From: Nitrosopumilus ureiphilus
GTDB lineage: Archaea; Thermoproteota; Nitrososphaeria; Nitrososphaerales; Nitrosopumilaceae
Reading direction: 5' to 3'
Assembly: GCF_013407185.1 (NCBI RefSeq)
Contig: NZ_CP026995.1
Location: forward strand, 1,009,483 to 1,041,482
Length of the DNA: 32,000 bases
The number at the start of each line of letters is the position of its first letter. Position 1 is the stretch's first letter. Below are positions 4,207-24,837 of the stretch, piece by piece. The notes under the pieces are model-generated. The model was given only the letters and a program-made list of their open reading frames with translations. It did not search any database and was not told where the DNA came from. Position numbers and translations under genes: made by a program.

Positions 4207-5493
4207 ATGGCAGGTATGATAATTCTTGGAATCAGTGTTGTTTTAGCACTGTTTTTTGCCACAAATTCTGTTTTTGCCGATTCAGTTGATACAAGTGAAC
4301 AAATCACTCTTTCAAAAGATCTTGAAAATAATTCTGTTGCGCAAGACATTCTAAAAAAAATTGAAAAAAGCAAGAAATGGATTGCACAAATAGAACAAAG
4401 AAATTTTGAAGCCCTGGAAAAACAAAAAGAACTAGAGAAAAAAAGAGCAGAGGCTATACAAATTCTAGAGAAAAAACTAAAAAAATGGGAAGATCTTTGG
4501 GAATACTATACCTTTGATAAAATGCTTGAAAGTGCACTTGAAAATAGTCCTGCAAAATATACTTCCAGCACATATGATCATCCGCTAAAATTTACTGCAT
4601 CAAAGATTAATGCGGGACGTGATGCATTACACAAAGTCATTCTTGAAGGTGGAGGACCAGAAAAAGCAAGAGAGGCTTTTGTTATTGCAGCCAAAATAAC
4701 AAGAGCAGAGATGCTTGCTGCCAATAGTCTCTTTAATGTTATTAATAATAATGCATACTATAACCAGCAGATTCTCTTTAGTTCTGATGGTAACTTTGAG
4801 GAGATTATTTCTGGAGAACAACTAAGAAAATATTATCAAGATTATAGAACAAACCCTGGCTATCTACAAGCAAATCCATTTGACAAAATATCTTGGGAAG
4901 ATCTTGGCAAGAATAACCCAGATACTGAATGCAGACAGGATCAAGTATTGGTGTATAGAACACATGCAGATGATTATGTATGTACAACAGAATACACTGC
5001 TGAAATGTGGGTACACCATAAAATGGGAACTGTGGTAACTGATACATTTTTAGAAACAAAAGATCCTGTAGATGTAAAAAAATTCCAACAAGACAGAATT
5101 TTTGAAAAAGTAAAAAACCTCAATTCAAAAATTGAATCTATGCAAAAACATAATGAGTTAAAAATATCTGATACAAAAAAGAAATACACTTCTATTTTTG
5201 TGAACATGGAAACAGAACAAAATGAAGAGGAAAAAAAAGTAATTGAGAAATTCAACAACTCTGGTTCTATGTCTAAAAAAACGTTTAGTCAGCAAATTTC
5301 TGATATTCGAGAAAAATACAAGCAACTAGAGGAAACTGTTGTGGATGAACAGTCTCGCATTCTGGAAATTCTAGAGAATCAACATCAGACAAGCATCAAT
5401 AATTTTGTAAAAAACTACGAATCTGATTCTGAAATGAGAATAATATGGAATTCACAGAATCCTGTCTTTGAAGCAGAAATATCTTTATCGTAA
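4207..5493 (+). CDS. Hypothetical secreted coiled-coil protein with a Cys-pair module
   Basis: 428-aa ORF. Signal peptide MAGMIILGISVVLALFFATNSVFA/DS, with Lys/Glu-rich heptad-like stretches at both ends. Central ECRQDQVLVYRTHADDYVCTTEYTAEMWVHHKMG resembles the Cys-pair module in three neighbouring proteins. Confidence 0.75.
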   Translation: MAGMIILGISVVLALFFATNSVFADSVDTSEQITLSKDLENNSVAQDILKKIEKSKKWIAQIEQRNFEALEKQKELEKKRAEAIQILEKKLKKWEDLWEYYTFDKMLESALENSPAKYTSSTYDHPLKFTASKINAGRDALHKVILEGGGPEKAREAFVIAAKITRAEMLAANSLFNVINNNAYYNQQILFSSDGNFEEIISGEQLRKYYQDYRTNPGYLQANPFDKISWEDLGKNNPDTECRQDQVLVYRTHADDYVCTTEYTAEMWVHHKMGTVVTDTFLETKDPVDVKKFQQDRIFEKVKNLNSKIESMQKHNELKISDTKKKYTSIFVNMETEQNEEEKKVIEKFNNSGSMSKKTFSQQISDIREKYKQLEETVVDEQSRILEILENQHQTSINNFVKNYESDSEMRIIWNSQNPVFEAEISLS

Positions 5494-6129: not shown

Positions 6130-7302
6130 ATGAAATATTTTGTAATTTTCTTGGTATTGATGATGTTTGTAGGCACAATTGCTCCTGTATTAGGTTTTGA
6201 GATTCATGATCTTGACTATGAAAATTCCCCATATCAAAACAAGAAGACTCCATCCCTTGGAAAACCAGTAGAACTATTCTATCAAGTTGTAAACCATGCT
6301 CCAAAAAATCAAAGCTATGATGTTATGATTTCAATTACAAATCTTGATGAGAAAAAACAGGTTCACTCTAAACAGTACCAATATGAAATTCCATCAGGTA
6401 AATTTATTGATATTATTTGGAAATTTACGCCAGAAACTTCTGGTCTTTATCTTGTAGATGTGACTGAGAATCATTACAAATACACAAAACATATTTTTGC
6501 AGTGCCTGAAAATAACGATTTTAAAAAAATTCACAAGACAAATCCTGTATTACTTGAGAACCAAAGCCCAAGACAACAATTCCGTATGGGTATTGATCCA
6601 AAAGAGATATTTTGTAAAGATGAATTATACCTTGCACTAAAATCCTCAGGACTTCCTGTTTGTGTGACCCTTGATACATTAATAGAATTTAGACAAAGGG
6701 ACATCATCATTCCTGATGTGATTGATTATGATCGAATTGGTTTTGCGGTTTCAGAAAATCAATTCATAAAAATGTTGGATGAAAACAATATCGAGTATGA
6801 TCGAGAAGAATTACTATTGGTCTCAGGATTTGCTCAACTTTCACTTCCGCCAACAAGTGGCTATTGCGGATATGTTCTAGATAAAACCCCCGAAGACTAT
6901 TGGTTTTCTAGCTCCTATCATTTTGACACTTTGTTGAGTTCCAATCTTTATGATGAAAATCCAAATCCATGTATCAGTGCGATGAGTTTTACATGTGAAT
7001 GTTCAATTCAAACACAACTAAAAGAAAATGAATTAACAGAATTATCATACTTTGATGAATCTCAAGAAAAGCATGTAGGGAATATGTTTCGGGATTATCT
7101 TAATGAAGGGGGAAAGATTGCAAATGCCCCAAACTCATTTATCATTGGAAAATACAACATGGATTTGGATTCTGACATCACTTTGTTTTGTGGACAATTT
7201 CAGGGAAAACAATACTGGCATTTTACAGGCTCAATTAATGACACAAAGATATCTGATTGGGGACGAATCGGATGGACGACCCAAACTATGTGCAATAAAT
7301 GA
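6130..7302 (+). CDS. Hypothetical secreted protein (Ig/CARDB-like N-terminal region plus Cys-pair module)
   Basis: 390-aa ORF. Signal peptide MKYFVIFLVLMMFVGTIAPVLG. Residues 146-191 (SPRQQFRMGIDPKEIFCKDELYLALKSSGLPVCVTLDTLIEFRQRD) match the module in the 8569 and 9805 proteins. Promoter and leader are duplicated at 24814-24873 (minus strand). Confidence 0.8.
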   Translation: MKYFVIFLVLMMFVGTIAPVLGFEIHDLDYENSPYQNKKTPSLGKPVELFYQVVNHAPKNQSYDVMISITNLDEKKQVHSKQYQYEIPSGKFIDIIWKFTPETSGLYLVDVTENHYKYTKHIFAVPENNDFKKIHKTNPVLLENQSPRQQFRMGIDPKEIFCKDELYLALKSSGLPVCVTLDTLIEFRQRDIIIPDVIDYDRIGFAVSENQFIKMLDENNIEYDREELLLVSGFAQLSLPPTSGYCGYVLDKTPEDYWFSSSYHFDTLLSSNLYDENPNPCISAMSFTCECSIQTQLKENELTELSYFDESQEKHVGNMFRDYLNEGGKIANAPNSFIIGKYNMDLDSDITLFCGQFQGKQYWHFTGSINDTKISDWGRIGWTTQTMCNK

Positions 7303-8051: not shown

Positions 8052-8572
8052 AAACCAACTTTATTCTGCTAACTACCACTATAGTATTTGCGTTACTTAC
8101 AGTTACATTTGGATATGGTGGACTATTATCAAATTATCAACACTTGACATGTTGGGATTCATGTGCTTGGGAAATACTTGAGGGATGTGATGAAATCTGT
8201 AAAGATGTCCCTGAAAAACGAACAGAATTAACAAGAGAAGAACAAAAAGAAAAAGGCCAAAAACTCAGAGAGATATACGATCCAATCCTTGAGAAATATA
8301 TTAGTTCAATAGGAATTATGGGAGGACCATTTCCAAGAGGCCACGGGTATTCATATCCTGTATCTCTAGAAGATAATCTTGATGCTAATTTTGATTATTC
8401 TGACGGATTTTTCATGCATTCTCAAATATTGGAGATAGTCTCTCCATTAAAACAAACAGATGATGCAGGAAAAATAACTATTGTAAAAGAAATGTTGTTT
8501 CCAGAGATGTATGTATTCTGGTTATTTGTCATAGCAATTGGGATAATTGTAGGATTCAAGATACGAAAATGA
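8048..8572 (+). CDS. Hypothetical secreted protein with C-terminal TM anchor and basic tail
   Basis: ATG at 8048 overlaps the upstream TGA (ATGA). MKTNFILLTTTIVFALLTVTFG leader, then a Cys-rich segment CWDSCAWEILEGCDEICK. C-terminus FPEMYVFWLFVIAIGIIVGFKIRK. Confidence 0.75.
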   Translation: MKTNFILLTTTIVFALLTVTFGYGGLLSNYQHLTCWDSCAWEILEGCDEICKDVPEKRTELTREEQKEKGQKLREIYDPILEKYISSIGIMGGPFPRGHGYSYPVSLEDNLDANFDYSDGFFMHSQILEIVSPLKQTDDAGKITIVKEMLFPEMYVFWLFVIAIGIIVGFKIRK

Positions 8573-9678
8573 AAACTAGAGTTTTGATTCCAATGCTTGC
8601 ATTATCCTTGTTGGCTTCTACAACTGCACTTTCATTTGGTGAATCATCTGATGAGTATGCATTGGGAATAGTAGAATGGCAGTATGACTGTCATCCACTT
8701 GTATTCAATACGGGTCTGATCAGAATCACTGATCCTGACATGAACATTGATGATGATGTGCCTGACAGATTTGACATTGAGGTTCTGTCTGATTATAATG
8801 AGAATAATATTCAAAAATATGTCAATCCCGTTTACACAGTAATTGAAACTGGTGATTCAACAGGGGTATTTGAGACGGTGGTATTTTGGGGAGATCCAGG
8901 TGACGAGGGAATCGGACATAGAGTGCCAATCTGGGATAACGTTACAGTTACTGCAAAGTATACTGATCATACACTGCCTTTATCTTACTTGGATTCAAGT
9001 TTGGACATTACAAGTTCTATAATTGTAAGAGATGTAAAACCAATAGAGAAAAAGAATTCTGACGGAATATCGGGTTTCTATTATGTATATGAGCCTTGCA
9101 CTGTGGAATTATTGGATATGAAAAACGACCCAAAATACACTGTAAACCACGATTTTATTTTTCTGCCCCCACTAAAACAAATCAAATCTGGAATTGCAGC
9201 AAAAGATGTGATTTGTAAGGAAGAATTACATCTTGTCAAGAAAAATTGGAAAGAAAATTGGGTTTGTGTCAAAAATTCAAGTATGGAGAAGCTAACATCA
9301 CGTAATTACATTTATCATAGTTTTGGCTCATCTGGAGTGGAAATTCCATCAGATGAATCAATACCCCGTATTCCATTGCTCGGATTGCCCGAAATTGATA
9401 ATGTGGAGATACAATCAATGATAGACTTGTTTGAAAACAGATACCACACATCTAAAATATCATTTGCTGGTTCAAACGTATTACTGAACGCTACACATAT
9501 CGGAGGCAAGACAGTGTCTCTTGTTATACAGTCCTTAGATGATAAAGTGACTGCCACATTGACTTGCAATCATATGGACTGGAGAAATCAAGAAGTAATC
9601 ACTGAAAACGTACTGGATTATCTAAAAAATGTGAATTGCTTTAATCCCTCAATGGAAGAAACAGGAAATGAAAACTAA
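8569..9678 (+). CDS. Hypothetical secreted protein (TDPDMN beta-module plus Cys-pair module)
   Basis: 369 aa with an ATGA overlap to the upstream gene. Signal peptide MKTRVLIPMLALSLLASTTALSFG. Residues about 33-135 are paralogous to the N-terminal domain of the 24019-24837 protein. Residues 200-247 form the PLKQIKSGI...C...L.L...VCV...KL..RNY module. Confidence 0.8.
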   Translation: MKTRVLIPMLALSLLASTTALSFGESSDEYALGIVEWQYDCHPLVFNTGLIRITDPDMNIDDDVPDRFDIEVLSDYNENNIQKYVNPVYTVIETGDSTGVFETVVFWGDPGDEGIGHRVPIWDNVTVTAKYTDHTLPLSYLDSSLDITSSIIVRDVKPIEKKNSDGISGFYYVYEPCTVELLDMKNDPKYTVNHDFIFLPPLKQIKSGIAAKDVICKEELHLVKKNWKENWVCVKNSSMEKLTSRNYIYHSFGSSGVEIPSDESIPRIPLLGLPEIDNVEIQSMIDLFENRYHTSKISFAGSNVLLNATHIGGKTVSLVIQSLDDKVTATLTCNHMDWRNQEVITENVLDYLKNVNCFNPSMEETGNEN

Positions 9679-9804: not shown

Positions 9805-11304
9805 GTGAAGTGTTGTATTGCCATTTTGTTTTTGGTGCTTGTTTTTTCATTAACATACAATGCATATGCCATAGAATTCAAACCACTTGTAGCCAAAGAT
9901 GCAGATGGAGTGAATATATCTAATGGAATAGTTGGCAAACCAATTATTTTTCAACATACCGTTTCAAATGGTGAACTTAGCGCAGTAGATTTTGAAATCG
10001 TATTTTCCACATTCACGCCAGACGATAAAACACTAGATCAACAAATACAACGGATTCACTTGGGGCCAGGTGAAACAAAAATCATGCCCTATCAATTTGT
10101 TCCAATAAATGAAGGAAATTACATTACAAGTGTGTTTTCTGAGGAATATCTTGCCGCAGATTCAATATCCTTTCCAGCATTAGATGGTGCTAAAAATTAC
10201 AAAAAAGAAACAATCCATCTGTATTCTAATTCTTCTGATAGTGACTGCTCGTTTGCATGCACGAAGCCTTCAGAGAAAACTGTCAGTGTTGGAACCATTG
10301 TAGAATGGGTAAATGATTCTAATGATGATCATAGTATTTCAACTGGGACCTATCAAGAAGAAGATAATGGAATTGGTTGGAGTTATGATAAAAGATTTTC
10401 AGGAAGTTTTGGCCCAAATGAAACATTCTCATTTCTGTTCTTGGAGCCAGGAGAATACCAGTATTTTTTAGCAGAGCACAGATTGAGCACGACTCCTGTT
10501 GTAGGAACAATTCATGTGTCATCAGATATTTTTCCTGCAACCGATAAAACAATTGATATTTTGCAAGGAATAATGAACGACAAGAATTCCAAAATTCCAA
10601 TTACGTCACTTTCTGTAAATCCAAAAAATTCGATAATAACTGTGGGGATTGATGACCGAAAACATGCTTTTTTTACTATTGAACTTTACAAAAAAATACT
10701 TTACAAACAAGTTGGAAATGTGTATCTTAACATAATTCCAAATCCAACTCCAAGAATAGGGCAAATGTGTGATGTAAATGATGAAACACAAGTAAGAAAG
10801 GAACTTGAAAAAGACCCAGTGGTGCAAAAATTCCTAGAATTGTACACTTCATCTACTTTTGAGCATTTTAAAACATATGATGAGCCTGGTAATCCACGTA
10901 CTTATTCGGAATTTCGTTTTGGCTCATTTCTTCTCAGAGTTCTTGTTTTGTCATATGATGAAAGCGGGGTTTGTTATCCCGTATATGGATATTCTGTAAA
11001 TCATGATAATTCTTTATCTGAGATAAAACAAAATTTGTTTGAAAATTTCTATTCCAAGTCAGATAAAATACAAGAAGCGATAAACGCAGTAAAGAATCTT
11101 GCAAATCCCCTAAAACAACTCAAATCCGGAATTCCAATATATGAAATGCAATGCAATGAGGGATTACAACTCACATTAAAAAATTCTAATGACAATCCAG
11201 TCTGCATCAAAGAAACCAGTGTTAAAAAACTATCCATGCGCAATTATGTTTCTGATATAATAATAATCGGCTTAAAACACTCATTGCCGGAAATTGAAAA
11301 ATGA
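9805..11304 (+). CDS. Hypothetical secreted multidomain protein (Ig-like N-term, cupredoxin-like domain lacking the Cys ligand, Cys-pair module)
   Basis: 499 aa with a GTG start. Leader MKCCIAILFLVLVFSLTYNAYA. The segment VSVGTIVEWVNDSNDDHSIS...GEYQYFLAEHRLSTTPVVGTIHV follows the cupredoxin pattern. ANPLKQLKSGIPIYEMQCNEGLQLTLKNSNDNPVCIKETSVKKLSMRNYV is the Cys-pair module. Confidence 0.8.
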   Translation: MKCCIAILFLVLVFSLTYNAYAIEFKPLVAKDADGVNISNGIVGKPIIFQHTVSNGELSAVDFEIVFSTFTPDDKTLDQQIQRIHLGPGETKIMPYQFVPINEGNYITSVFSEEYLAADSISFPALDGAKNYKKETIHLYSNSSDSDCSFACTKPSEKTVSVGTIVEWVNDSNDDHSISTGTYQEEDNGIGWSYDKRFSGSFGPNETFSFLFLEPGEYQYFLAEHRLSTTPVVGTIHVSSDIFPATDKTIDILQGIMNDKNSKIPITSLSVNPKNSIITVGIDDRKHAFFTIELYKKILYKQVGNVYLNIIPNPTPRIGQMCDVNDETQVRKELEKDPVVQKFLELYTSSTFEHFKTYDEPGNPRTYSEFRFGSFLLRVLVLSYDESGVCYPVYGYSVNHDNSLSEIKQNLFENFYSKSDKIQEAINAVKNLANPLKQLKSGIPIYEMQCNEGLQLTLKNSNDNPVCIKETSVKKLSMRNYVSDIIIIGLKHSLPEIEK

Positions 11305-13491: not shown

Positions 13492-13911
13492 ATGCTCATG
13501 CCTGAATCTCAAAGCATATGGTACAACGAGCTAGGCTCAAAGATGGCCCTTGATGCAGACGGTAAAGGGGGACTGACTGGCACGTATGTATCGGCAGTAG
13601 GTTCAGCTCAAGACGAGTATGCCTTGGTGGGTCGTTACAATCCTGCACAATCCCCGCCCACAGTAGGTTGGACGGTCCAATGGGTAAACTCGCACAAGAA
13701 GACTAATTCCGTGACGTCGTGGTCAGGGCAGCTGATGAATGTTGATGGTGTGCCTACAATTTTGACCACATGGCTATTGACACAGCAGACAAAACCTGAG
13801 AATGAATGGGAATCGACTATGGTTGATCAGGATGTGTTTACTCCAAACAAACCAACGGATGAGCAGATACGACTGGCAAAGATGAAACGTGGTTGCTCAA
13901 ATCCCGTCTGA
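13492..13911 (+). CDS. Avidin/streptavidin-family biotin-binding protein homologue, no signal peptide
   Basis: 139 aa, collinear by eye with core streptavidin: WYNELGS, GGLTGTYVSAVGSA..YALVGRY, VGWTVQW, SVTSWSGQ, TTWLLT, EWESTMVDQDVFT. An in-frame TGA at 13474-13476 rules out an N-terminal extension. A TATA-like TTTTTATTAATA lies about 30 nt upstream. Confidence 0.85.
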   Translation: MLMPESQSIWYNELGSKMALDADGKGGLTGTYVSAVGSAQDEYALVGRYNPAQSPPTVGWTVQWVNSHKKTNSVTSWSGQLMNVDGVPTILTTWLLTQQTKPENEWESTMVDQDVFTPNKPTDEQIRLAKMKRGCSNPV

Positions 13912-14238: not shown

Positions 14239-14330
14239 TGTTAATATGATATTATCATATGCTAATATTTAAGAATTATGAACTGCTGCAGTTCATGTTG
14301 TTTAATTATTATTAGTTTGTGAGAATCACA

Positions 14331-14774
14331 ATGACTACAAAAAATAATAGAAAACTGACAAAGATCATCCCCCTAGCGTTTGGGTTGGTAGCAATCATTG
14401 CTGGAATGTCTGTTGTTCCTTCATTAGGTCAACAAGAAGCTACTGCAGCAATCAATTGTCCATCAGGAGGCGGTGCATGTTACGGAACATCTGGTAACGA
14501 CACGATCTATGGAAGTGCAAACAGGGATATCATTCTTGCTGGTGCTGGTGATGACACGATCTTTGGCAATGGTGGAGATGATAACATCTATGGTGAAGCA
14601 GGAAAAGATACCATTAGTGGCGGTGCTGGAAATGATAATCTATATCATTCCGGTTCAGCATCAGGTTCAGATGGATTCGCCGATTCACTTGATGGTGATT
14701 CTGGTTCAGATACATGTCATTGGAACTCATCAGATGGTGATACAATGGCAAATTGTACCTCTATACCTTGGTGA
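14331..14774 (+). CDS. Secreted protein with hemolysin-type (RTX) calcium-binding nonapeptide repeats
   Basis: I prefer the ATG at 14331 (the track uses GTG 14319). Sec-type leader MTTKNNRKLTKIIPLAFGLVAIIAGMSVVPSLGQQEATA/A. Six consecutive GGxGxDxUx-like units follow: GTSGNDTIY, GSANRDIIL, AGAGDDTIF, GNGGDDNIY, GEAGKDTIS, GGAGNDNLY. Confidence 0.75.
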   Translation: MTTKNNRKLTKIIPLAFGLVAIIAGMSVVPSLGQQEATAAINCPSGGGACYGTSGNDTIYGSANRDIILAGAGDDTIFGNGGDDNIYGEAGKDTISGGAGNDNLYHSGSASGSDGFADSLDGDSGSDTCHWNSSDGDTMANCTSIPW

Positions 14775-14975: not shown

Positions 14976-15467
14976 TTGATAATGATTGTTATTTTATGTT
15001 TTGTTTTTTTATTTTCTCTTCAACTTCTTTTCAATCCTTTTTACATTATTACGAGTGGAAGTATGTTGCCAACACTTGTTCAAGAAGATATGGTTATTAC
15101 ATCTGATGAATCTTTTTTTGATCTAAAAGTAGGTGACATAATTGTTTTTAAGAGCAATTACAATAATTTAGATCGTACATATGTACACAGAATAGTAGAA
15201 ATCATGGATGATGATGAAAGGTATGTTAAAACCAAAGGGGATTATAATCCTTCTTCACTAGAAGGTTTGGATTATCCCATAAAAGAAAGTAATTATGTTG
15301 GTAAAGTAATTATTGTACTCCCAAAAATCGGCATGTTTATTAAAATTTTTTCCCCTCCAATAAATTACTATATCATGATTATTTCTTCTAGTTTACTACT
15401 GTTTTTTTTCCGAAAAAATATATTTTATTGTTTGTATAAATCAAAAGAATTTTCTGAGAATACCTGA
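14976..15467 (+). CDS. Signal peptidase I, archaeal/ER (Sec11/SipW) type
   Basis: 163 aa with an N-terminal TM, then the SGSMLPTL Ser box, YVHRIV His box and TKGDYN box, and a C-terminal TM. Start is TTG 14976 or ATG 14982. Confidence 0.8.
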   Translation: MIMIVILCFVFLFSLQLLFNPFYIITSGSMLPTLVQEDMVITSDESFFDLKVGDIIVFKSNYNNLDRTYVHRIVEIMDDDERYVKTKGDYNPSSLEGLDYPIKESNYVGKVIIVLPKIGMFIKIFSPPINYYIMIISSSLLLFFFRKNIFYCLYKSKEFSENT

Positions 15468-17231: not shown

Positions 17232-17327
17232 ATTTATTTTGAATTTTATTTTCAGAAAATGAAACTCCGACTTTGTTATTTTTTGTTCTGTTATAACTTC
17301 TAATACCGAGTATGAAAATCAAAAACA

Positions 17328-19364
17328 ATGGTAAAACCAAATACTGGTCTTGGAATTGCATGTTTTTTAATACTGGGCATTTCATTTTTAATTCTATTTG
17401 CATACTTGACATTTTTTGACATCTATGCAACACAAACTTCAAGTGTTGAGGGTAATTTTGACGGAGTTGATTTTACCAAAAAGCGAATTTTTGTATTGGG
17501 TGCAAGTTCAGTTGACGTTCTAAATTTTACTAGCATTGATGAATATTTGGCTAATCATGGCAAGAAAGATTACGAAGTGTACAATCTTACCGAAGATGGA
17601 GACAGACCTTCAGAAAGAATTGCACAGATTGACAAGATAATTGACATGGAGCCTGATTTGGTTTTATACGGACTGGGAATGAGGGAATTTGGATATGATG
17701 ATTTTTCCCCAGGCCTAACAAAATGTTTGCCTCTGAATTATGGTGCATTTTGGGAGATGCGTAAAGAAATACCAGACAAAGAAAAAATTACAGATATCCC
17801 TCAGGATTCAAATGTTTTTGAGCCTCTGGCAATCATAAAAAATGAGATCAAAAAGCAAACTGTGCCAGGATTCCCAGATTTTGTAGAGCCCAAATTTGCG
17901 ACTGTTTCATTTTTGAATAACATTTTGTATCAAAAAGAAGTTCAGACAGAGTCATTTCTTGATAAAAATTATACGGAATTAAAAAAACAGGGAGGGGTAA
18001 AAGAGATTGTTCCAAACAGCAAGTTAAAAGAAAAATTGAAAAACATGGTTTTTGGATACTGCGAAGAAATGAACAAGGATGAATTGGCACATCTTGGGAT
18101 AATTCTAGACAGATTACATGAAAAAAATATCGACGTGGCAGTTTTTGTTGCCCCGTACAGCGGGCCATATCTAGATGTATTGTCAGATCTTTCAATCCAA
18201 CATTATTTTGTAGGATTACACAAGATTACAAACAATGCTAATGTGAAACTCTATTCATTTTTGGACAGATACAAAGAACTGGACATATTTCATGATGCCA
18301 CTCATGTAGCAGCTAATGCAAAATCATCTGTGTTTAGCAAAGATTTTGCATTTTTTACACTAAACATCATAGACAGCAGAGAGAGAAACTACGAATCACA
18401 GAATCTATTAGAATTTCAATACGGAAAATCATCAAGTGAAAATTTGAACAGTAAACAAATACGTAAACTGCATTCATTTGAAAATCTCAATCTTTCAGGT
18501 ATTGTTCTAGCAAATGAAGATTTGTCCGGAAAGAAAATTGCAAATACAGACTTGACTCAAGCAAATCTGGAATCTGTTGATTTTTCACGCATCATTATGA
18601 GTGATTCAGTTTTGAATGGAGCCAACATGTATTATGCAAATCTCTCTAATGCAGAAATTACACACACATCCATGAACGGTGCAAATTTGTTGTTTGCAGA
18701 TGTAACAAATGCAATATTGTCCGATATTGATTTGAGGTACTCTCTGGTTATGGGGGTGAATTTCTCAAATCTGAACATGACGAACATTGATTTTTCAGGA
18801 TCAAATATGTTGAAATCAAATTTTAGAGATTCCCACATGACAAATGTGGATTTTTCAAGTGTAGACTTATCTCAGACCGATTTTAGCGGTGCTCAAAGGG
18901 ATAATAAAACGAGATTCTCAGGCACAAAACTGATCGAATCGAATCTCAGTAATTTTGACATGTCATATTTGGATCTGTCCGGAGTTGTTCTGTCTGGGGC
19001 AAATCTTACAAATACCTCATTTAGAGGGTCAGAATTTATTTTCTCTGATCTGTCCGGAGTTGATCTTTCTACATCAGATATGAATGGGGTGACACTTTTA
19101 GCATCTGATTTGAGTTTTACAAATATTCCAAATGCACAATTCTCACAGATTAATGCAAAGCATGCAAATTTTGCCAATGCAAATTTGATTGGTGCAGACT
19201 TGTCTTTTGCAGATTTTCTTGGCGCACGGTTTGTAAATACTAATTTAACTGGGGCAAATCTTACAGGAACCCAACTAAAGTTTGCCAATTTTACAGGAGC
19301 CATTCTGGATAATGCTAATCTGCGGTGTCTCGATCATACCATATGCAATAGTTTGAGGGAGTAA
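17328..19364 (+). CDS. Membrane-anchored fusion: SGNH/DltD/AlgJ-like domain (tentative) plus long pentapeptide-repeat domain
   Basis: 678 aa. N-terminal TM GLGIACFLILGISFLILFAYLTFF. The middle region has IFVLGASS (block-I-like Ser) and FHDATHV (DxxH-like). The last roughly 290 aa are uninterrupted A(D/N)LxX pentapeptides (ANLSNAEITHTSMNGANLLFADVTNAILSDIDL...). The stop is 1 nt before the MBOAT start. Confidence 0.8.
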   Translation: MVKPNTGLGIACFLILGISFLILFAYLTFFDIYATQTSSVEGNFDGVDFTKKRIFVLGASSVDVLNFTSIDEYLANHGKKDYEVYNLTEDGDRPSERIAQIDKIIDMEPDLVLYGLGMREFGYDDFSPGLTKCLPLNYGAFWEMRKEIPDKEKITDIPQDSNVFEPLAIIKNEIKKQTVPGFPDFVEPKFATVSFLNNILYQKEVQTESFLDKNYTELKKQGGVKEIVPNSKLKEKLKNMVFGYCEEMNKDELAHLGIILDRLHEKNIDVAVFVAPYSGPYLDVLSDLSIQHYFVGLHKITNNANVKLYSFLDRYKELDIFHDATHVAANAKSSVFSKDFAFFTLNIIDSRERNYESQNLLEFQYGKSSSENLNSKQIRKLHSFENLNLSGIVLANEDLSGKKIANTDLTQANLESVDFSRIIMSDSVLNGANMYYANLSNAEITHTSMNGANLLFADVTNAILSDIDLRYSLVMGVNFSNLNMTNIDFSGSNMLKSNFRDSHMTNVDFSSVDLSQTDFSGAQRDNKTRFSGTKLIESNLSNFDMSYLDLSGVVLSGANLTNTSFRGSEFIFSDLSGVDLSTSDMNGVTLLASDLSFTNIPNAQFSQINAKHANFANANLIGADLSFADFLGARFVNTNLTGANLTGTQLKFANFTGAILDNANLRCLDHTICNSLRE

Positions 19365-19365
19365 A

Positions 19366-20868
19366 ATGCTTTTCAACACAATTGATTTTATTGTATTTTT
19401 CATCCTAGTTGTAACTACAATAGTCATTGTTAAAAATCGCAATTACCAACACTTGTTTTTATTAATTGCAAGTTATTTCTTTTTTTATTATTCATCAAAC
19501 TATTTGATCAGCCTGTTGATTTTTTCTACAGTTCTTGATTTCTATGTTGCAAAAAAAATACATCAGCAAAAAAATAACCCTGCTCAGAAAAAGATTCTGC
19601 TTATAACAAGTTTGGTTGGGAATTTAGGGTTGCTAGGATTTTTCAAGTATGCCGATTTTGCAATTGCGCAATTCAACTTTTTTGGAAGTTACTTTAATCT
19701 GGCTGATGAAATACCATTTCTGTACATTGCGTTGCCCATTGGAATTTCATTTTACACATTTCAAACAATTAGTTATACCGTAGATGTTTATCGAGAAAAA
19801 CTAGAACCATCAAAATCTCTAAAGGAGTTTGCACTTTTTGTAGCATTTTTCCCACAGCTAGTTGCAGGCCCAATTTTACGTGCAAGTGACTTTCTACCTC
19901 AACTAAGAGAGAAAATCAAGAGTTTGGAAACTGTTTCATCATCTACCATAAAGTTAGGCAAAAAAATACAACTGTCTAAAATCTCAATAAATAGCAGCAA
20001 CCTCAAACTGGGAATCACGATAATGGGTTTTGGTTTTGTAAAAAAGATGTTTTTTGCAGACAATATTGCGCCTCTGGTAGATGAAATATTTTCAAATCCT
20101 ATGGGATTAGAGTCATTTTCCATCATTTTGGGAGCAATTGGCTTTGGAATTCAGATTTATGCTGATTTTTCAGGGTACTCTGATATTGCAATAGGTATAG
20201 CTACAGTTTTGGGTTTTAAGATTCCAATCAACTTTAATCGTCCTTATTTTGCCACATCTCCTAGAGATTTCTGGAAGAGATGGCACATTTCTTTGTCAAC
20301 ATGGTTGAGGGATTATCTGTACATACCACTTGGTGGTAGCAAAAAATCATCTGTTGGGACATATGGCAATTTGTTTGCAGTGATGATTTTAGGTGGAATC
20401 TGGCATGGCGCTGCATGGAATTTTGTAGTATGGGGACTTCTTCACGGAGCGTATCTAGCAGTAACTCGATTCTTTGGAAAGAAATTTCCTCAATTTACTT
20501 TGCATCCATTTTTTAGTACCAGAATTGGTAAAATTATTTCAATTTTAACGGTACAGTACTTTGTATTTTTAGCATGGATTCCATTCAGAGTTCAAAATTT
20601 TGATTTTATGTTGTACTCTATGCAAAAATATGTCCTAATAGATTTTGCAACAGAGAAAACGCTGGAACTAATATCCTCAAACAAGATTTCAGTTTTCTTG
20701 ATTGTTGTTTTTATCATAACCTGCATTATATCATACAAGAAAAACATCCATCAAATTGCATCGAATTTGTCTCTGAAAAAATGGACATTAGTCATGACAT
20801 TGTTTGCAGTAATAATTTTGGTTTTGTATGACGGTTCCCCGCAAGATTTTATTTATTTTAAATTTTAA
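19366..20868 (+). CDS. Membrane-bound O-acyltransferase (MBOAT; AlgI/DltB/PatA-like)
   Basis: 500-aa polytopic protein with the family signature SPRDFWKRWHISLSTWLRDYLYIPLGGS and a downstream WHGAAWNFVVWGLLHG. Confidence 0.92.
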   Translation: MLFNTIDFIVFFILVVTTIVIVKNRNYQHLFLLIASYFFFYYSSNYLISLLIFSTVLDFYVAKKIHQQKNNPAQKKILLITSLVGNLGLLGFFKYADFAIAQFNFFGSYFNLADEIPFLYIALPIGISFYTFQTISYTVDVYREKLEPSKSLKEFALFVAFFPQLVAGPILRASDFLPQLREKIKSLETVSSSTIKLGKKIQLSKISINSSNLKLGITIMGFGFVKKMFFADNIAPLVDEIFSNPMGLESFSIILGAIGFGIQIYADFSGYSDIAIGIATVLGFKIPINFNRPYFATSPRDFWKRWHISLSTWLRDYLYIPLGGSKKSSVGTYGNLFAVMILGGIWHGAAWNFVVWGLLHGAYLAVTRFFGKKFPQFTLHPFFSTRIGKIISILTVQYFVFLAWIPFRVQNFDFMLYSMQKYVLIDFATEKTLELISSNKISVFLIVVFIITCIISYKKNIHQIASNLSLKKWTLVMTLFAVIILVLYDGSPQDFIYFKF

Positions 20869-21485: not shown

Positions 21486-21539
21486 GTACTATGTATTTAT
21501 AGTACTTTTACCATAATATTATGGTAATAAACCATAATA
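21486..21539. promoter_or_regulatory. Operator-like repeat cluster: GTACTAT-N6-ATAGTAC and perfect 18-bp palindrome TACCATAATATTATGGTA plus a third half-site
   Basis: Inverted repeat at 21486-21505. Perfect palindrome at 21509-21526 (hand-checked). ACCATAATA is repeated at 21531-21539. The cluster overlaps the A/T-rich TATA position about 30 nt upstream of the ATG at 21551. Confidence 0.55.
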
Positions 21540-21550
21540 GGTGCCTAAAT

Positions 21551-22636
21551 ATGAAAGAAAACATGTACAAAATACTGGATATATTGGCCAGAGAGATTGG
21601 CAACCCAATGTCAATTAACGAAATAAAAAATAAAATCGAATGCATCTATGGATCTGCAGATTACAAAAATATTCACATGTCCATCCATGAAATGGAAAAG
21701 TCAAATCTTATCACGATTGAAAAAATTGGAAAGTCATCTATTGCATCGCCAAACTTTGATAACCCTTTGTTAATTGATAATCTAGCACAGGTTGAACTCA
21801 TCAACAAGGTTCAATTTTTAGAAAAAAGAAAAGATTGGCAAATACTATTTCTACAAATTAATTCATATCTGAGAGAATTTAGCATAATAAGATCTATTTT
21901 AATTATAAATCCTGAAACAAATGCAAAGTTAAACAGAATTGAATTTCTTATCTTATTGCGCAAAGAAGAGAATAAAGAAGAATTCAAAGACATTCGTAGT
22001 AATATGGAATTACTTCAACGAGTGCACAACATCAGAATAGATTATTTGATGTTAGATGAGACAAGCTTTGAGAATTTGATGAGATATGAAGATGCCAATC
22101 CAATAAAAGAAGTAATGTCAGACAAAATTGCAATATTTTATCCTCAGGCTTTTTGGCTTATGATCAAAAACCTTCTTGACAAAGGAATAAGAATTAAAGT
22201 AGAAGAAGAATCAATTTCACTTGCAAAGATTTCAGAGCAAGATATTGTTTTTAATCTTGCAAGATTTGGATACAAAGAGATGGGTACAAAAATTACCCAG
22301 GGAAAAGCAATAGGAATTGAATATCTAGTAACTTCGATTTTGGTAAAAAAAGACAATGTTCGTAGGTTAGAGGCAATACCAATAATCCTTGCAAAAAACA
22401 AAGAAAAGATCAACTATTCTCTTCTAGTTTTTCTGGTAACAAAATTCAAGATGATACGACAACTATACAATATTTTGAAAGTTTTAGATGAGATAACTCC
22501 CACAGAAGAGGTCAAACAAATCATGAGAGAGATTACTGGTGCAGTAAAACAGAAGGTAAAGACAGACCAACAGGTAATAGAACTGAGCCTGAAAGACATG
22601 GAAAAAAAGATGAGGCTGTACGATGTCATTGAATAA
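21551..22636 (+). CDS. Large N-terminal winged-helix protein (putative regulator/antitoxin-like partner)
   Basis: I prefer the ATG at 21551 (MKENMYKILDILAREIGNPMSINEIKNKI...) because the track start at 21521 lies inside the palindrome. A wHTH-like N-terminus is followed by about 290 aa of unknown function. The 3' end overlaps the next gene by 14 nt. Confidence 0.7.
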   Translation: MKENMYKILDILAREIGNPMSINEIKNKIECIYGSADYKNIHMSIHEMEKSNLITIEKIGKSSIASPNFDNPLLIDNLAQVELINKVQFLEKRKDWQILFLQINSYLREFSIIRSILIINPETNAKLNRIEFLILLRKEENKEEFKDIRSNMELLQRVHNIRIDYLMLDETSFENLMRYEDANPIKEVMSDKIAIFYPQAFWLMIKNLLDKGIRIKVEEESISLAKISEQDIVFNLARFGYKEMGTKITQGKAIGIEYLVTSILVKKDNVRRLEAIPIILAKNKEKINYSLLVFLVTKFKMIRQLYNILKVLDEITPTEEVKQIMREITGAVKQKVKTDQQVIELSLKDMEKKMRLYDVIE

Positions 22637-23132
22637 GCAGGTACTTTTGGACTTTCTAGAGGAACTAGACAAGGAACTTGAACGCAAGATAACAGTTGTG
22701 GCCGTAGGTGGTACTGCGATGACACTTCACAACGCCAAAGAATCTACAATTGACGTCAATTTCACGATTCCAGCAGAAGATTATGCAGAGTTTCACAGGG
22801 TTTTGAATCTGGTTCCTCACGGGTTCAAAGTCGACACGTGGAACAACGGAATGGTCTTCAGCCAAGACCTGCCTGATGACTATTTGAAAAACAGCAGAAA
22901 TGTCAGAACAAAGATGAAAAACATGAAACTCAAGACTCTAGATCCACTTGACATCATCGTGACAAAAATCGGCAGGCTAAATGAAAGAGACAAGGAAGAC
23001 ATTGCAATGTGCATCAAAAAATTCAAGATCACAAAGGCTCAGATCAAAAAAAGAGCAAAGCAAGTGATCTATACAGGCAGAGAAGAAAACTATGAGATTA
23101 ATCTGAACCATGTGATGAAGAAGTTTTTTTAG
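22623..23132 (+). CDS. Nucleotidyltransferase-fold protein (DUF6036/AbiEii-like, tentative)
   Basis: 169 aa. VVAVGGTAMTLHNAKESTIDVNF fits hGG-x12-D-h-(D/E)-h, except that the second acidic residue is Asn. LDPLDIIVTKIGRLNERDKEDIAMCI matches the family's C-terminal K...R.KD..D pattern as I recall it. Confidence 0.5.
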   Translation: MSLNKQVLLDFLEELDKELERKITVVAVGGTAMTLHNAKESTIDVNFTIPAEDYAEFHRVLNLVPHGFKVDTWNNGMVFSQDLPDDYLKNSRNVRTKMKNMKLKTLDPLDIIVTKIGRLNERDKEDIAMCIKKFKITKAQIKKRAKQVIYTGREENYEINLNHVMKKFF

Positions 23133-24018: not shown

Positions 24019-24837
24019 TTACTTGACAAACAAGTTAATGTTTACTGGAGGAGACAGGGCAGTAGGATTGTTAACAGATTCCCAAACAAATACAGTTGCA
24101 GTGTATTTGCCTTCTTTGAAAGGAATCCATGTCACCTCAGGATTTATTTTCTGAAAAGATGTAAGATTTCCAGTAAGCCAAGATAAAGATTCTACTTGGT
24201 TTTGACTGTTTTGTATTTGAACTAAATATGCAAATGGCTGAATTCTGTCCATTTGGTTTTCTAAGTCAGAAACTAGTCTAATTTGTTGGTCTACAGAAAT
24301 TAAATTGTCATCTATAGGTATTTTTTCTGTATCTAGCACCATAAAGTTTGATACAGGAGCTCTCTCCATCGGAGGTGAACTTCCCCCAACTATGGCAGTT
24401 GAAAACATCTCTATTCCATTTTCTGTGATTATAGCATTTCTAGTAGGTGTATGATTTACAGGAAATAGAGTATCCACATACTCTGCAGTTATTGTATCCC
24501 CTTCAACAGTATGTAAAAATCCTGTCCCCGAAGGTGGTTTTTCTACAAATACAACATCTCCTTCAAATATGCCCGAATCAAAATCGGTTTCAAAAAGTGT
24601 CATTCTAAAACCAGAATGATCAGTATCCGAATGAATTGCAATCCACACATAGTCTATTACATTTGGATGTCGATTCATGTCAGGATCAGTCACAATTATG
24701 GTGGCTTTGGTTCCATCATGACTTGGGAAACTGGCCTGTTTCCAGTAAACTTCGGCAACCGTAAAATCAAGGGGTTCTCCAAATACTGTTGACGTCAGGA
24801 ACCCAATTAGAATCAAAAAAATTACAAAATATTTCAT
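24019..24837 (-). CDS. Hypothetical secreted protein (TDPDMN beta-module plus Ig/CARDB-like C-terminal domain)
   Basis: 272 aa. Signal peptide MKYFVIFLILIGFLTSTVFG. N-terminal domain VYWKQ...IIVTDPDMN...HSDTD..G...LFETDFDSGIFEGDVVF...GDTITAEYVD is paralogous to the 8569 protein. Its promoter and leader duplicate those of the 6130 gene. Confidence 0.8.
   Translation of the reverse strand: MKYFVIFLILIGFLTSTVFGEPLDFTVAEVYWKQASFPSHDGTKATIIVTDPDMNRHPNVIDYVWIAIHSDTDHSGFRMTLFETDFDSGIFEGDVVFVEKPPSGTGFLHTVEGDTITAEYVDTLFPVNHTPTRNAIITENGIEMFSTAIVGGSSPPMERAPVSNFMVLDTEKIPIDDNLISVDQQIRLVSDLENQMDRIQPFAYLVQIQNSQNQVESLSWLTGNLTSFQKINPEVTWIPFKEGKYTATVFVWESVNNPTALSPPVNINLFVK

Follow-up and report, generated by a model that had tools for sequence, protein, structure and literature searches.

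A probable glycan O-acyltransferase gene pair of Nitrosopumilus ureiphilus with an SGNH/DltD-like partner fused to a long pentapeptide-repeat rod

Pairs of an MBOAT and an SGNH-type protein shape the bacterial surface, influencing among other things resistance to lysozyme, biofilms of alginate and the charge of teichoic acids. Targets of O-acetylation by such pairs are peptidoglycan (PatA/PatB), the secondary cell-wall polysaccharide (PatA1/PatB1) and alginate (AlgI with AlgJ/AlgX/AlgF). Few cells in the ocean are as abundant as archaea of the Nitrosopumilus type; to our knowledge, the MBOAT/SGNH pairs of Archaea are essentially unstudied. In the PatA/PatB and AlgI-type systems, the MBOAT carries acetyl across the membrane and a partner of the SGNH fold loads it onto the extracytoplasmic glycan (PMC9487903), and DUF1574 (PF07611) is listed as an SGNH family without known activity or structure (PMC9487903). 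For DltB, His336 was identified as the invariant active-site histidine of MBOAT proteins and His289 as the second conserved His/Asn position (PMC11035591). The part played by DltD in the acyl relay is debated, the DltB structure paper proposing that the DltD triad may not join directly in transfer (PMC11035591). The S-layer of Nitrosopumilus-type cells is described as glycan-coated and negatively charged, and concentration of ammonium and protection of the cell from phages are its proposed roles (PMC11153153).

In this study we analyzed a stretch of 32,000 nucleotides of the N. ureiphilus genome (hereafter the window; positions are counted from its first letter and all features lie on the + strand), in which an ORF for a 678-aa fusion protein (17328..19364), hereafter the partner, is followed by that for a 500-aa MBOAT (19366..20868), assigned to the bacterial AlgI/PatA/DltB type by PF03062 and by alignment with DltB. 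The two ORFs are co-directional and, as given in the preliminary description, separated by a single nucleotide, the base 19365 between the partner stop and the MBOAT start. The partner carries, from N to C terminus, a transmembrane anchor, an SGNH/DltD-like domain, a pentapeptide beta-helix and a Cys cap. We consider it likely that the pair constitutes a two-component extracytoplasmic glycan O-acyltransferase system, akin to those of AlgI, PatA and DltB, in which the partner bears a rod. What appears new is that the predicted outer enzyme of this otherwise usual two-gene acylation machine is fused to an unusually long rod of fixed length; in the literature searched we found no description of a fusion between an SGNH-type partner and pentapeptide repeats, in line with the preliminary description, nor any report of a pentapeptide fusion of DUF1574.

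The partner family was recovered only by exhaustive HMMER search, and residue conservation was counted over 151 members. Most of the relatives are stand-alone proteins of ~330 aa, and the pentapeptide fusion is found in two small clades, with fusion orthologs of 674-705 aa at the related loci L001, L003, L004, L006 and L007. The gene pair is conserved: at each of the 12 distinct loci whose flanking DNA extended far enough (7 with fusion and 5 with stand-alone partners) the partner gene adjoins an MBOAT gene, even at L014 where the gene order is reversed. This adjacency is shared with DltB/DltD. The stand-alone pairs sit in glycan-biosynthesis clusters of Nitrosopumilus-like archaea, among genes for NeuB, CMP-sugar synthetase, DegT, epimerases, glycosyltransferases (GT1/2/4), PMT_2 and a Polysacc_synt flippase, a setting that the related loci have in common with PatA/PatB and AlgI systems; the Nitrosopumilus-like taxonomy of the relatives was deduced from the metagenome-assembled genome bin_7KS, an Archaeal_AmoA neighbour at L003 and the low GC content. 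The glycan-gene neighbourhood holds for the stand-alone relatives and not for the window pair itself, which lies outside any glycan cluster as far as its neighbours were scanned in the window, these being a Band-7 protein, a signal peptidase, proteins of unknown type and a DUF6036 nucleotidyltransferase. The acceptor was extrapolated, for this reason, from paralogous or orthologous loci, and the cluster context of the stand-alone relatives points indirectly to a surface glycan. Conservation is limited to the pair itself and does not extend to its flanks. A 272-aa gene 3' of the pair was considered as a conserved neighbour in the window and at L001, and the two proteins proved to be unrelated. 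A WING-49 domain is present among the window neighbours; the idea that family member P0236 carries this domain as its C-terminal repeat gained no support.

The SGNH/DltD-like catalytic domain of the partner (residues ~50-352; 17475..18383) was delineated by an AF2 model, Foldseek, and Pfam and profile matches of the family. The window protein alone stays below significance with every SGNH-type Pfam model, including DltD (PF04914; 13.5 bits against a gathering cut-off of 22.7, E=0.045, the match spanning D323-H326), and its N-terminal domain alone gives no significant match to PDB sequences, so that homologs and a structure model were required for the assignment. Three independent lines then point to the SGNH/DltD-like fold. 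In a per-member Pfam scan of 100 relatives, 41 matched DltD (E<=0.1, best 1e-8), 22 Lipase_GDSL_2 and 20 DUF1574 (best E 9e-10), the last a family without a match in the window protein, and the fusion-type member P0129 exceeded the DltD cut-off with 23.6 bits. The family profile matched the GDSL esterase 7ddy (E=5e-4). With the AF2 model of the domain (pLDDT 80, pTM 0.75), all 16 Foldseek matches in the PDB at E<=0.001 were SGNH enzymes, among them 7ddy (1e-5), DltD 6pfx (1.5e-4) and 3bma (2.5e-4), the target-normalised TM-score being 0.6-0.72 for compact esterases. The domain is, by these sequence comparisons, a distant sister group of DltD rather than a clear member; unlike the established partners, it belongs to none of the PatB (DUF459), DHHW and AlgX families, the ALGX model (PF16822) giving weak matches in only 3 of the 100 relatives (best E=0.013).

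Conservation of the candidate catalytic residues agrees with this assignment. The motifs IFVLGASS and FHDATHV, tentatively proposed at the outset as the Ser and DxxH blocks, are present, and their Ser60, Asp323 and His326 coincide with conserved positions of the family. The candidate nucleophile Ser60 (codon 17505..17507), within block I (G58-x-S60), is conserved in all 151 members and G58 in 150. Block V (D323-x-x-H326; 18294..18305) would supply the acid and the base of the candidate triad. Here His326 is kept in 150 of 151 and Asp323 in 107 (Asn in 27, Glu in 6); the fusion subfamily shows no change at either position, the replacement of Asp323 in ~30% concerning the wider family. In SGNH enzymes a Gly of block II and an Asn of block III form the oxyanion hole; conserved residues of these types in the partner family are N66, N86 and G115.

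The top Foldseek matches are hydrolases, namely acetyl-xylan esterases, TesA and sialate O-acetylesterase, and this raises the alternative that the SGNH-like domain is an esterase, trimming or removing acyl groups or hydrolysing an acyl intermediate, with the MBOAT alone responsible for acylation; the doubt over direct participation of the DltD triad in transfer (PMC11035591) also speaks for it. The strict adjacency to the MBOAT at 12 of 12 loci is, however, the signature of the transferase pairs PatA/PatB, AlgI/AlgJ/AlgX and DltB/DltD (PMC9487903), and generic GDSL esterases are less favoured by the sequence matches than DltD and DUF1574. An esterase is therefore unlikely in our judgement, and the reading of the partner as a transferase component is retained.

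The MBOAT matches PF03062 with 121 bits (cut-off 27; E=8.8e-35), which places it in the family, and aligns with the solved DltB structures 8jem and 6bug (E~3e-22). Its motifs around H347 and H307 align to WHG and RWHMSLS of DltB with both histidines kept. The catalytic-histidine signature previously pointed out, WHISLSTWLRDY, does contain a conserved histidine, H307 (RWHISLS; codon 20284..20286), the counterpart of DltB His289, but the equivalent of the invariant active-site His336 is H347 (codon 20404..20406) in GGIWHGAAW. More than 8000 relatives of the MBOAT were found, including one in the named metagenome-assembled genome Ca. Nitrosopumilus sp. bin_7KS; where sources name these relatives, they are called AlgI or DltB, by homology only.

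The best solved structural relatives of the two proteins are DltB and DltD, which serve in D-alanylation of lipoteichoic acid in Firmicutes, and there, as predicted here, the MBOAT works with an SGNH-like protein that has a Ser/His/Asp triad, lies outside the cytoplasm and is anchored by a single N-terminal membrane pass. Transfer of an aminoacyl group to a teichoic-acid-like polymer, instead of acetyl, was considered on these grounds, together with a weak match to Glyphos_transf (teichoic-acid-type polymerase) at one stand-alone locus. We regard it as quite improbable, since the MBOAT reaches 132 bits with the DltB equivalog TIGR04091, far under the cut-off of 375, the DltB names of its relatives carry no more than homology, and neither a DltA-like ligase nor a DltC-like carrier was found among the scanned window neighbours or at the related loci; DltX was likewise not found near the window pair. 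Unlike the Firmicutes with Dlt systems, the host archaeon is, as far as we know, devoid of teichoic acids, and DltD is without a pentapeptide domain. The group transferred by the window pair is probably acetyl.

The N-terminal helix (residues 4-35; 17337..17432) is by hydropathy the sole hydrophobic helix of the partner, as anticipated, and is modelled by AF2 as a helix of residues 4-38. Application of the positive-inside rule to the 135 family members with a transmembrane helix gave flank net charges of +2.1 versus -1.4 and an N-in orientation in 99%. With the N terminus predicted inside, the catalytic domain and the repeats are predicted outside, in agreement with the extracytoplasmic setting first supposed; this N-in/C-out topology is also fitted by the cysteine counts, almost always even among family members, and by the conserved terminal Cys pair.

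The pentapeptide-repeat region (residues ~383-668; 18474..19331; PF00805, register analysis and AF2) matches PF00805 with 156 bits (cut-off 20.2; E=1.2e-46) through tandem repeats of the A(D/N)LXX type, in which a central hydrophobic residue recurs every five positions, and hence belongs to that family. A long array had been noticed before, but with roughly 58 units in uninterrupted succession; we count ~56-57, arranged as 28 units, a one-residue (+1) register shift at GAQRDNKTRFSG (~residues 522-534) and ~28 further units. In the full-length AF2 model the rod has a pLDDT of 85-95 and a strand every five residues, forming one continuous helix, and Foldseek matched it to HetL (1.9e-12) and Np275/276 (1e-8), so that a right-handed quadrilateral beta-helix is predicted. 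The pentapeptide-repeat fold has four units per coil with a rise of ~4.8 Å, from which we calculate ~14 coils and a length of roughly 7 nm. The repeat and its predicted helix are shared with Rfr-fold proteins such as HetL, Np275/276, Qnr/MfpA, lumenal Rfr32 and At2g44920, some of which are not cytoplasmic. The solved pentapeptide proteins matched are stand-alone chains of ~130-240 residues, whereas the window rod, which is archaeal, comprises ~283 repeat residues, continues the chain of a membrane-anchored enzyme, and ends in a Cys-x5-Cys cap. In AlgX the accessory domain is instead a carbohydrate-binding module. The cap, C667-x5-C673 (CLDHTIC; 19326..19346), recognized in the alignment of fusion proteins, is invariant in all 7 aligned fusion proteins and in L001-L014, and the two cysteines probably form a disulfide that closes the helix.

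The rod is acidic, with a net charge of -13 in the window protein and -10 to -22 over all fusions, as in DNA mimics, and its closest named matches in sequence and structure (HetL, Qnr, MfpA) are cytoplasmic proteins. A pentapeptide domain working in the cytoplasm as a DNA mimic like Qnr/MfpA, with the opposite topology of the partner, is nevertheless very improbable: the C-terminal part is predicted outside in 99% of members, with only one transmembrane helix the rod shares its side of the membrane with the SGNH domain, the partners of MBOATs act extracytoplasmically (PMC9487903), the terminal Cys pair is conserved, and lumenal pentapeptide proteins, for instance 2f3l, 2g0y and 3n90, are known.

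The length of the rod is constant among the window-like (group A) orthologs, and 283 residues align free of indels down to 36% identity, with the exception of one central loop. Its dN/dS, 0.10-0.14, equals that of the enzyme domain, indicating purifying selection of the same strength. A first word-indexed search with the N-terminal domain as query gave no relatives, and one with a family alignment only 12 proteins; an exact-sequence look-up returned no match, scans of two genome collections gave no relative, and a diverse alignment (A1) contained no usable conserved stretch. The failure of the first search, the look-up and the scans to find the protein would suit an origin as an assembly or gene-calling artefact, or as a decaying accidental fusion with functionless repeats. 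Such an origin is already refuted within the limits of sequence data: the same architecture recurs at 7 distinct loci, which stem from different assemblies and sources, and 8 representative clusters have it too, with dN/dS ~0.1 and conserved length of the repeats. Each of the two fusion clades is monophyletic (bootstrap 100 and 99); their union has 47% support and takes in four non-fusion members, and the shared Cys-x5-Cys cap favours a single origin of the fusion.

The identity of the MBOAT, the SGNH-like partner, the predicted topology and the adjacency of the two genes all support the reading as an O-acylation system, put forward in the preliminary description. For the acyl donor, the acceptor, the order of the relay and the function of the rod, we infer the following scheme. 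The acyl group, most probably acetyl supplied by acetyl-CoA, would be taken by the polytopic MBOAT from a thioester donor in the cytoplasm and presented at an outward-facing site formed by His307 and His347. The partner would be held next to the MBOAT by its single N-in transmembrane helix. Ser60 of the SGNH/DltD-like domain would pick up the acyl group, with His326 as the base and Asp323 as the acid, and the partner would pass it to a hydroxyl of an envelope glycan, which may be linked to protein, belong to a lipid-linked oligosaccharide or form part of some other surface polymer. Glycoproteomics has reported no O-acyl groups on Nitrosopumilus glycans, the chemistry of which is largely uncharacterised. 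The rigid acidic rod, distal to the catalytic domain, would extend into the gap that separates the membrane from the S-layer. As the catalytic domain adjoins the anchor, the rod cannot be a stalk raising the enzyme off the membrane. The spacer, ruler or binding rod suggested earlier is speculation, with some backing from conserved length and purifying selection; most likely the rod is non-catalytic and serves either to dock or position the enzyme with respect to some component of the envelope, or to bind the acceptor. More specifically, and only as a doubtful conjecture, the acidic, length-conserved rod of ~7 nm could be a strut or ruler that connects the membrane-embedded acyl-transfer complex with the S-layer, at its inner face, or with a different polymer of the envelope, and so sets the place and time of envelope-glycan acylation in ammonia-oxidising archaea; the available part of PMC11153153 gives no membrane-to-S-layer distance for N. 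maritimus.

Acylation of envelope glycans would alter the ammonium-concentrating and phage-shielding properties of the S-layer. The fusion also bears on the old question of the role of pentapeptide-repeat helices outside the cytoplasm, and makes it experimentally approachable in that a rod of conserved length is covalently joined to an enzyme of predictable function. If the strut or ruler were true, a pentapeptide-repeat domain outside the cytoplasm would have a defined mechanical or positional role for the first time, and Archaea would have, in this pair, their first characterised system for MBOAT-dependent acylation of the surface.

Upstream of the pair lies an AT-rich intergenic stretch (17232..17327, recognized by sequence reading), in which TTATAA is found ~38 nt 5' of the partner ATG; this stretch may represent an archaeal promoter.

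The window is AT-rich (GC about 33%), and two co-directional open reading frames were called on its forward strand, one at 17328..19364 encoding a protein of 678 aa and the other at 19366..20868 encoding a protein of 500 aa, separated by a single base and located exactly where the preliminary description had placed an MBOAT acyltransferase and its SGNH-like partner. The MBOAT identity of the downstream protein was borne out by a match to PF03062 (E=8.8e-35), and the solved DltB structures 8jem and 6bug align to it with E of about 3e-22; its score lies far under the DltB equivalog cut-off. The motif originally taken for the catalytic-His signature, RWHISLSTWLRDY, does contain H307, which is aligned with the conserved His289 of DltB, but the active-site histidine that is invariant in the family lies elsewhere, at H347 within GGIWHGAAW, the counterpart in the alignment of DltB His336. 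Both H307 and H347 are kept in the window MBOAT. This protein shares 88% identity, over 82% of its length, with the MBOAT of 'Ca. Nitrosopumilus sp. bin_7KS', whose locus (L003) carries the same fusion plus an Archaeal_AmoA-domain gene close by; on sequence grounds, the source organism is Nitrosopumilus-like.

When the N-terminal 385 residues of the 678-aa protein were analyzed alone, the DltD match was sub-threshold (E=0.045, residues 232-328), no match was obtained against PDB sequences, and a word-indexed homolog search with this N-terminal domain returned no relatives. An exhaustive HMMER search gave 447 representative clusters of relatives at E<=0.001, mostly 300-340 aa in length, with 8 of the 150 best relatives extending to 475-952 aa. 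By three independent lines of sequence comparison and modelling, the middle domain is SGNH/DltD-like. Firstly, Pfam scans of 100 single relatives detected DltD in 41 (best 1e-8), Lipase_GDSL_2 in 22, DUF1574 in 20 and ALGX in 3, and Pfam's own DltD cut-off was passed by one fusion-type relative, P0129. Secondly, the family profile matches 7ddy, a GDSL acetyl-xylan esterase, at E=5e-4. Thirdly, an AlphaFold2 model of the domain was built from the family alignment (pLDDT 80, pTM 0.75), and its 16 PDB matches at E<=0.001 comprise SGNH enzymes only, with DltD of two species among them (6pfx, 1.5e-4; 3bma, 2.5e-4). Among 151 family members, Ser60 is conserved in all, Gly58 and His326 in 150 each, and Asp323 in 107, the rest mostly having Asn or Glu at this position, so that the Ser and DxxH blocks, only tentatively proposed before, correspond to conserved catalytic positions and are real. 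The catalytic family may already be catalogued, since the Pfam accession PF27429 covers one stand-alone relative, i.e. one without pentapeptide repeats, in precomputed annotation.

The 678-aa protein carries one N-terminal hydrophobic helix (residues 4-35), and such a transmembrane helix is present in 135 of 150 relatives. Within these, the short N-flank has a net charge of +2.1 versus -1.4 for the 15 residues past the helix, the N-flank being the more positive in 99%. The positive-inside rule then predicts a cytoplasmic N-terminus, and therefore the SGNH domain and everything downstream of the anchor should lie outside. The number of cysteines after the anchor in the relatives is almost always even (0, 2 or 4), and an invariant Cys-x-[DN]-x-x-x-Cys forms the C-terminal end of all typical fusion proteins, a motif that fits a putative disulfide cap.

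The pentapeptide-repeat region of the 678-aa protein matches PF00805 with 156 bits against a cut-off of 20.2. Register analysis identified 28 consecutive in-phase pentapeptides and, after the register moves by one residue at GAQRDNKTRFSG, about 28 more; the long array reported earlier thus stands, but it comprises about 56-57 units instead of about 58 and is nearly, not strictly, uninterrupted. In the full-length model, residues ~383-668 form one continuous beta-helix (pLDDT 85-95) with a strand every five residues, and in structure it best matches other pentapeptide-repeat proteins, namely HetL (1.9e-12), Np275/276, Qnr, MfpA and lumenal Rfr proteins. In this fold, four pentapeptide units make up one coil with a rise of about 4.8 A, and 56 units are therefore calculated to give about 14 coils, or a rod of roughly 7 nm. 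As the catalytic domain starts about 15 residues past the transmembrane helix and the rod is C-terminal to it, the rod would project beyond the enzyme and not lift it off the membrane. Comparison of the window with its orthologs in L001, L003 and L006 gave a dN/dS of 0.10-0.14 for the rod, the same as that of the SGNH domain (0.12-0.14 versus L001 and L003; synonymous sites were saturated versus L006). The 283-residue repeat region is free of indels down to 36-40% identity (L004 and L007), except for a loop of 9-10 residues at the central register shift, and all fusion proteins have an acidic rod (net charge -10 to -22). That both length and sequence of the rod are constrained speaks for a specific structural role. 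The candidate functions, all consistent with the conserved length, the acidity and the distal position of the rod, are docking to a component of the envelope, binding of the acceptor and a role as positional element or ruler.

Wherever a fetched locus included sufficient flanking sequence, HMM search placed an MBOAT gene directly beside the SGNH-family gene, covering 7 distinct fusion loci (window, L001, L003, L004/5, L006, L007-9 and L014) and 5 distinct stand-alone loci (L002, L010/11, L012, L015 and L018). In L014 (1-3231), which encodes a divergent fusion protein of 659 aa, the MBOAT gene comes first and the SGNH-pentapeptide gene second, 12 nt apart, indicating that the adjacency of the pair is conserved and the gene order is not. 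Since its flanks vary by locus, the fusion pair behaves as a single unit. The stand-alone pairs sit in glycan-biosynthesis clusters with genes for NeuB, CMP-sugar synthetase, DegT aminotransferase, epimerases, GT1/GT2/GT4, PMT_2, Polysacc_synt flippase, PIG-L and WbqC. Scanning of the window neighbours revealed no glycan-biosynthesis cluster around the window pair, its neighbours being a Band-7 protein, signal peptidase, unknown proteins and purine-biosynthesis genes. The L010/L011 cluster includes two MBOAT genes, one cut at the locus edge and the other preceded by a stand-alone partner, together with two NeuB homologs, a CMP-sugar synthetase, a B12/radical-SAM enzyme and a weak match to Glyphos_transf (teichoic-acid-type polymerase).

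Neighbour-joining analysis of the catalytic domain recovered the fusions resembling that of the window (group A; window and P0121-P0124) with a bootstrap value of 100%, and a second fusion clade (group B; P0125, P0126, P0128 and P0129) with 99%. The split joining both groups has a bootstrap of only 47% and takes in four non-fusion members, and the tree would fit either two origins of the fusion or one origin with losses; the shared terminal Cys motif favours a single origin. Repeat number is more variable in group B, from about 54 to about 85 units. The same catalytic domain bears other accessory modules too: in P0129 (952 aa), about 85 pentapeptides are followed by an extra C-terminal domain of ~170 aa without family match, and in P0236 (427 aa) two copies of a ~45-aa repeat, 'SAKWWAEGxIxDxxFxxGIQFLIKEG', replace the pentapeptides. 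The P0236 repeat was considered as a possible WING-49 domain, and comparison did not support this.

By analogy with PatA/PatB, AlgI/AlgJ/AlgX and DltB/DltD (PMC9487903; PMC11035591), the MBOAT would take the acyl group of a cytoplasmic thioester donor and deliver it to its histidine site, which faces outward, Ser60 of the anchored SGNH-like partner would accept it, and the partner would then acylate a hydroxyl group of an envelope glycan. The acyl group is most likely acetyl from acetyl-CoA; neither an adenylating enzyme nor a carrier protein was found beside the pair in the loci examined. An envelope glycan as the acceptor is suggested by the glycan-cluster setting of the stand-alone relatives. 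The S-layer of N. maritimus is heavily N-glycosylated (PMC11153153), and Nitrosopumilus glycan chemistry is unresolved (PMC12153357). The MBOAT/SGNH partnership itself is an already known kind of system. Full-text search of open-access papers and bioRxiv found no description of a fusion, in Archaea, of an SGNH/DltD-like partner with a long pentapeptide helix, and MBOAT and 'pentapeptide repeat' occurred together in one paper only, in unrelated contexts.

Several other genes were noted in the window. Just downstream of the MBOAT, the genes for a 371-aa protein without family match and for a DUF6036 nucleotidyltransferase share 14 nt (21521-23132, forward strand); the two may constitute a toxin-antitoxin or defence-like pair, which is missing at the corresponding position in L001, L003 and L006. 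On the reverse strand, 24019-24837 encodes a 272-aa protein with a weak match (E=7e-5) to a segment of the anammox S-layer glycoprotein Kustd1514; in L001, a gene of equal size lying downstream of the pair was considered as its counterpart and rejected, the two being unrelated. Upstream on the forward strand, four consecutive genes without Pfam match (4207-5493, 6130-7302, 8569-9678 and 9805-11304) look like an array of paralogs that probably encode envelope proteins; NCBIfam WING-49 was detected with E of 2e-13 to 2e-17 in all except the first, in which the match is weak (E=0.007, under the 22-bit cut-off), and the last additionally contains a plastocyanin-like stretch. The gene at 14319-14774 (forward strand) encodes a small, probably secreted protein that combines a hydrophobic N-terminal segment with RTX-like calcium-binding GGxGxD repeats, and the next gene encodes a signal peptidase of family S26 (14976-15467, forward strand). 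A 139-aa homolog of the streptavidin/avidin family without obvious signal peptide is encoded at 13492-13911 on the forward strand (NCBIfam Stavidin, E=1.5e-34, 119 bits, under the equivalog cut-off of 300), and, since the kilobase that contains it is the only one in the window with raised GC (0.40 versus about 0.33), it may have been acquired horizontally.
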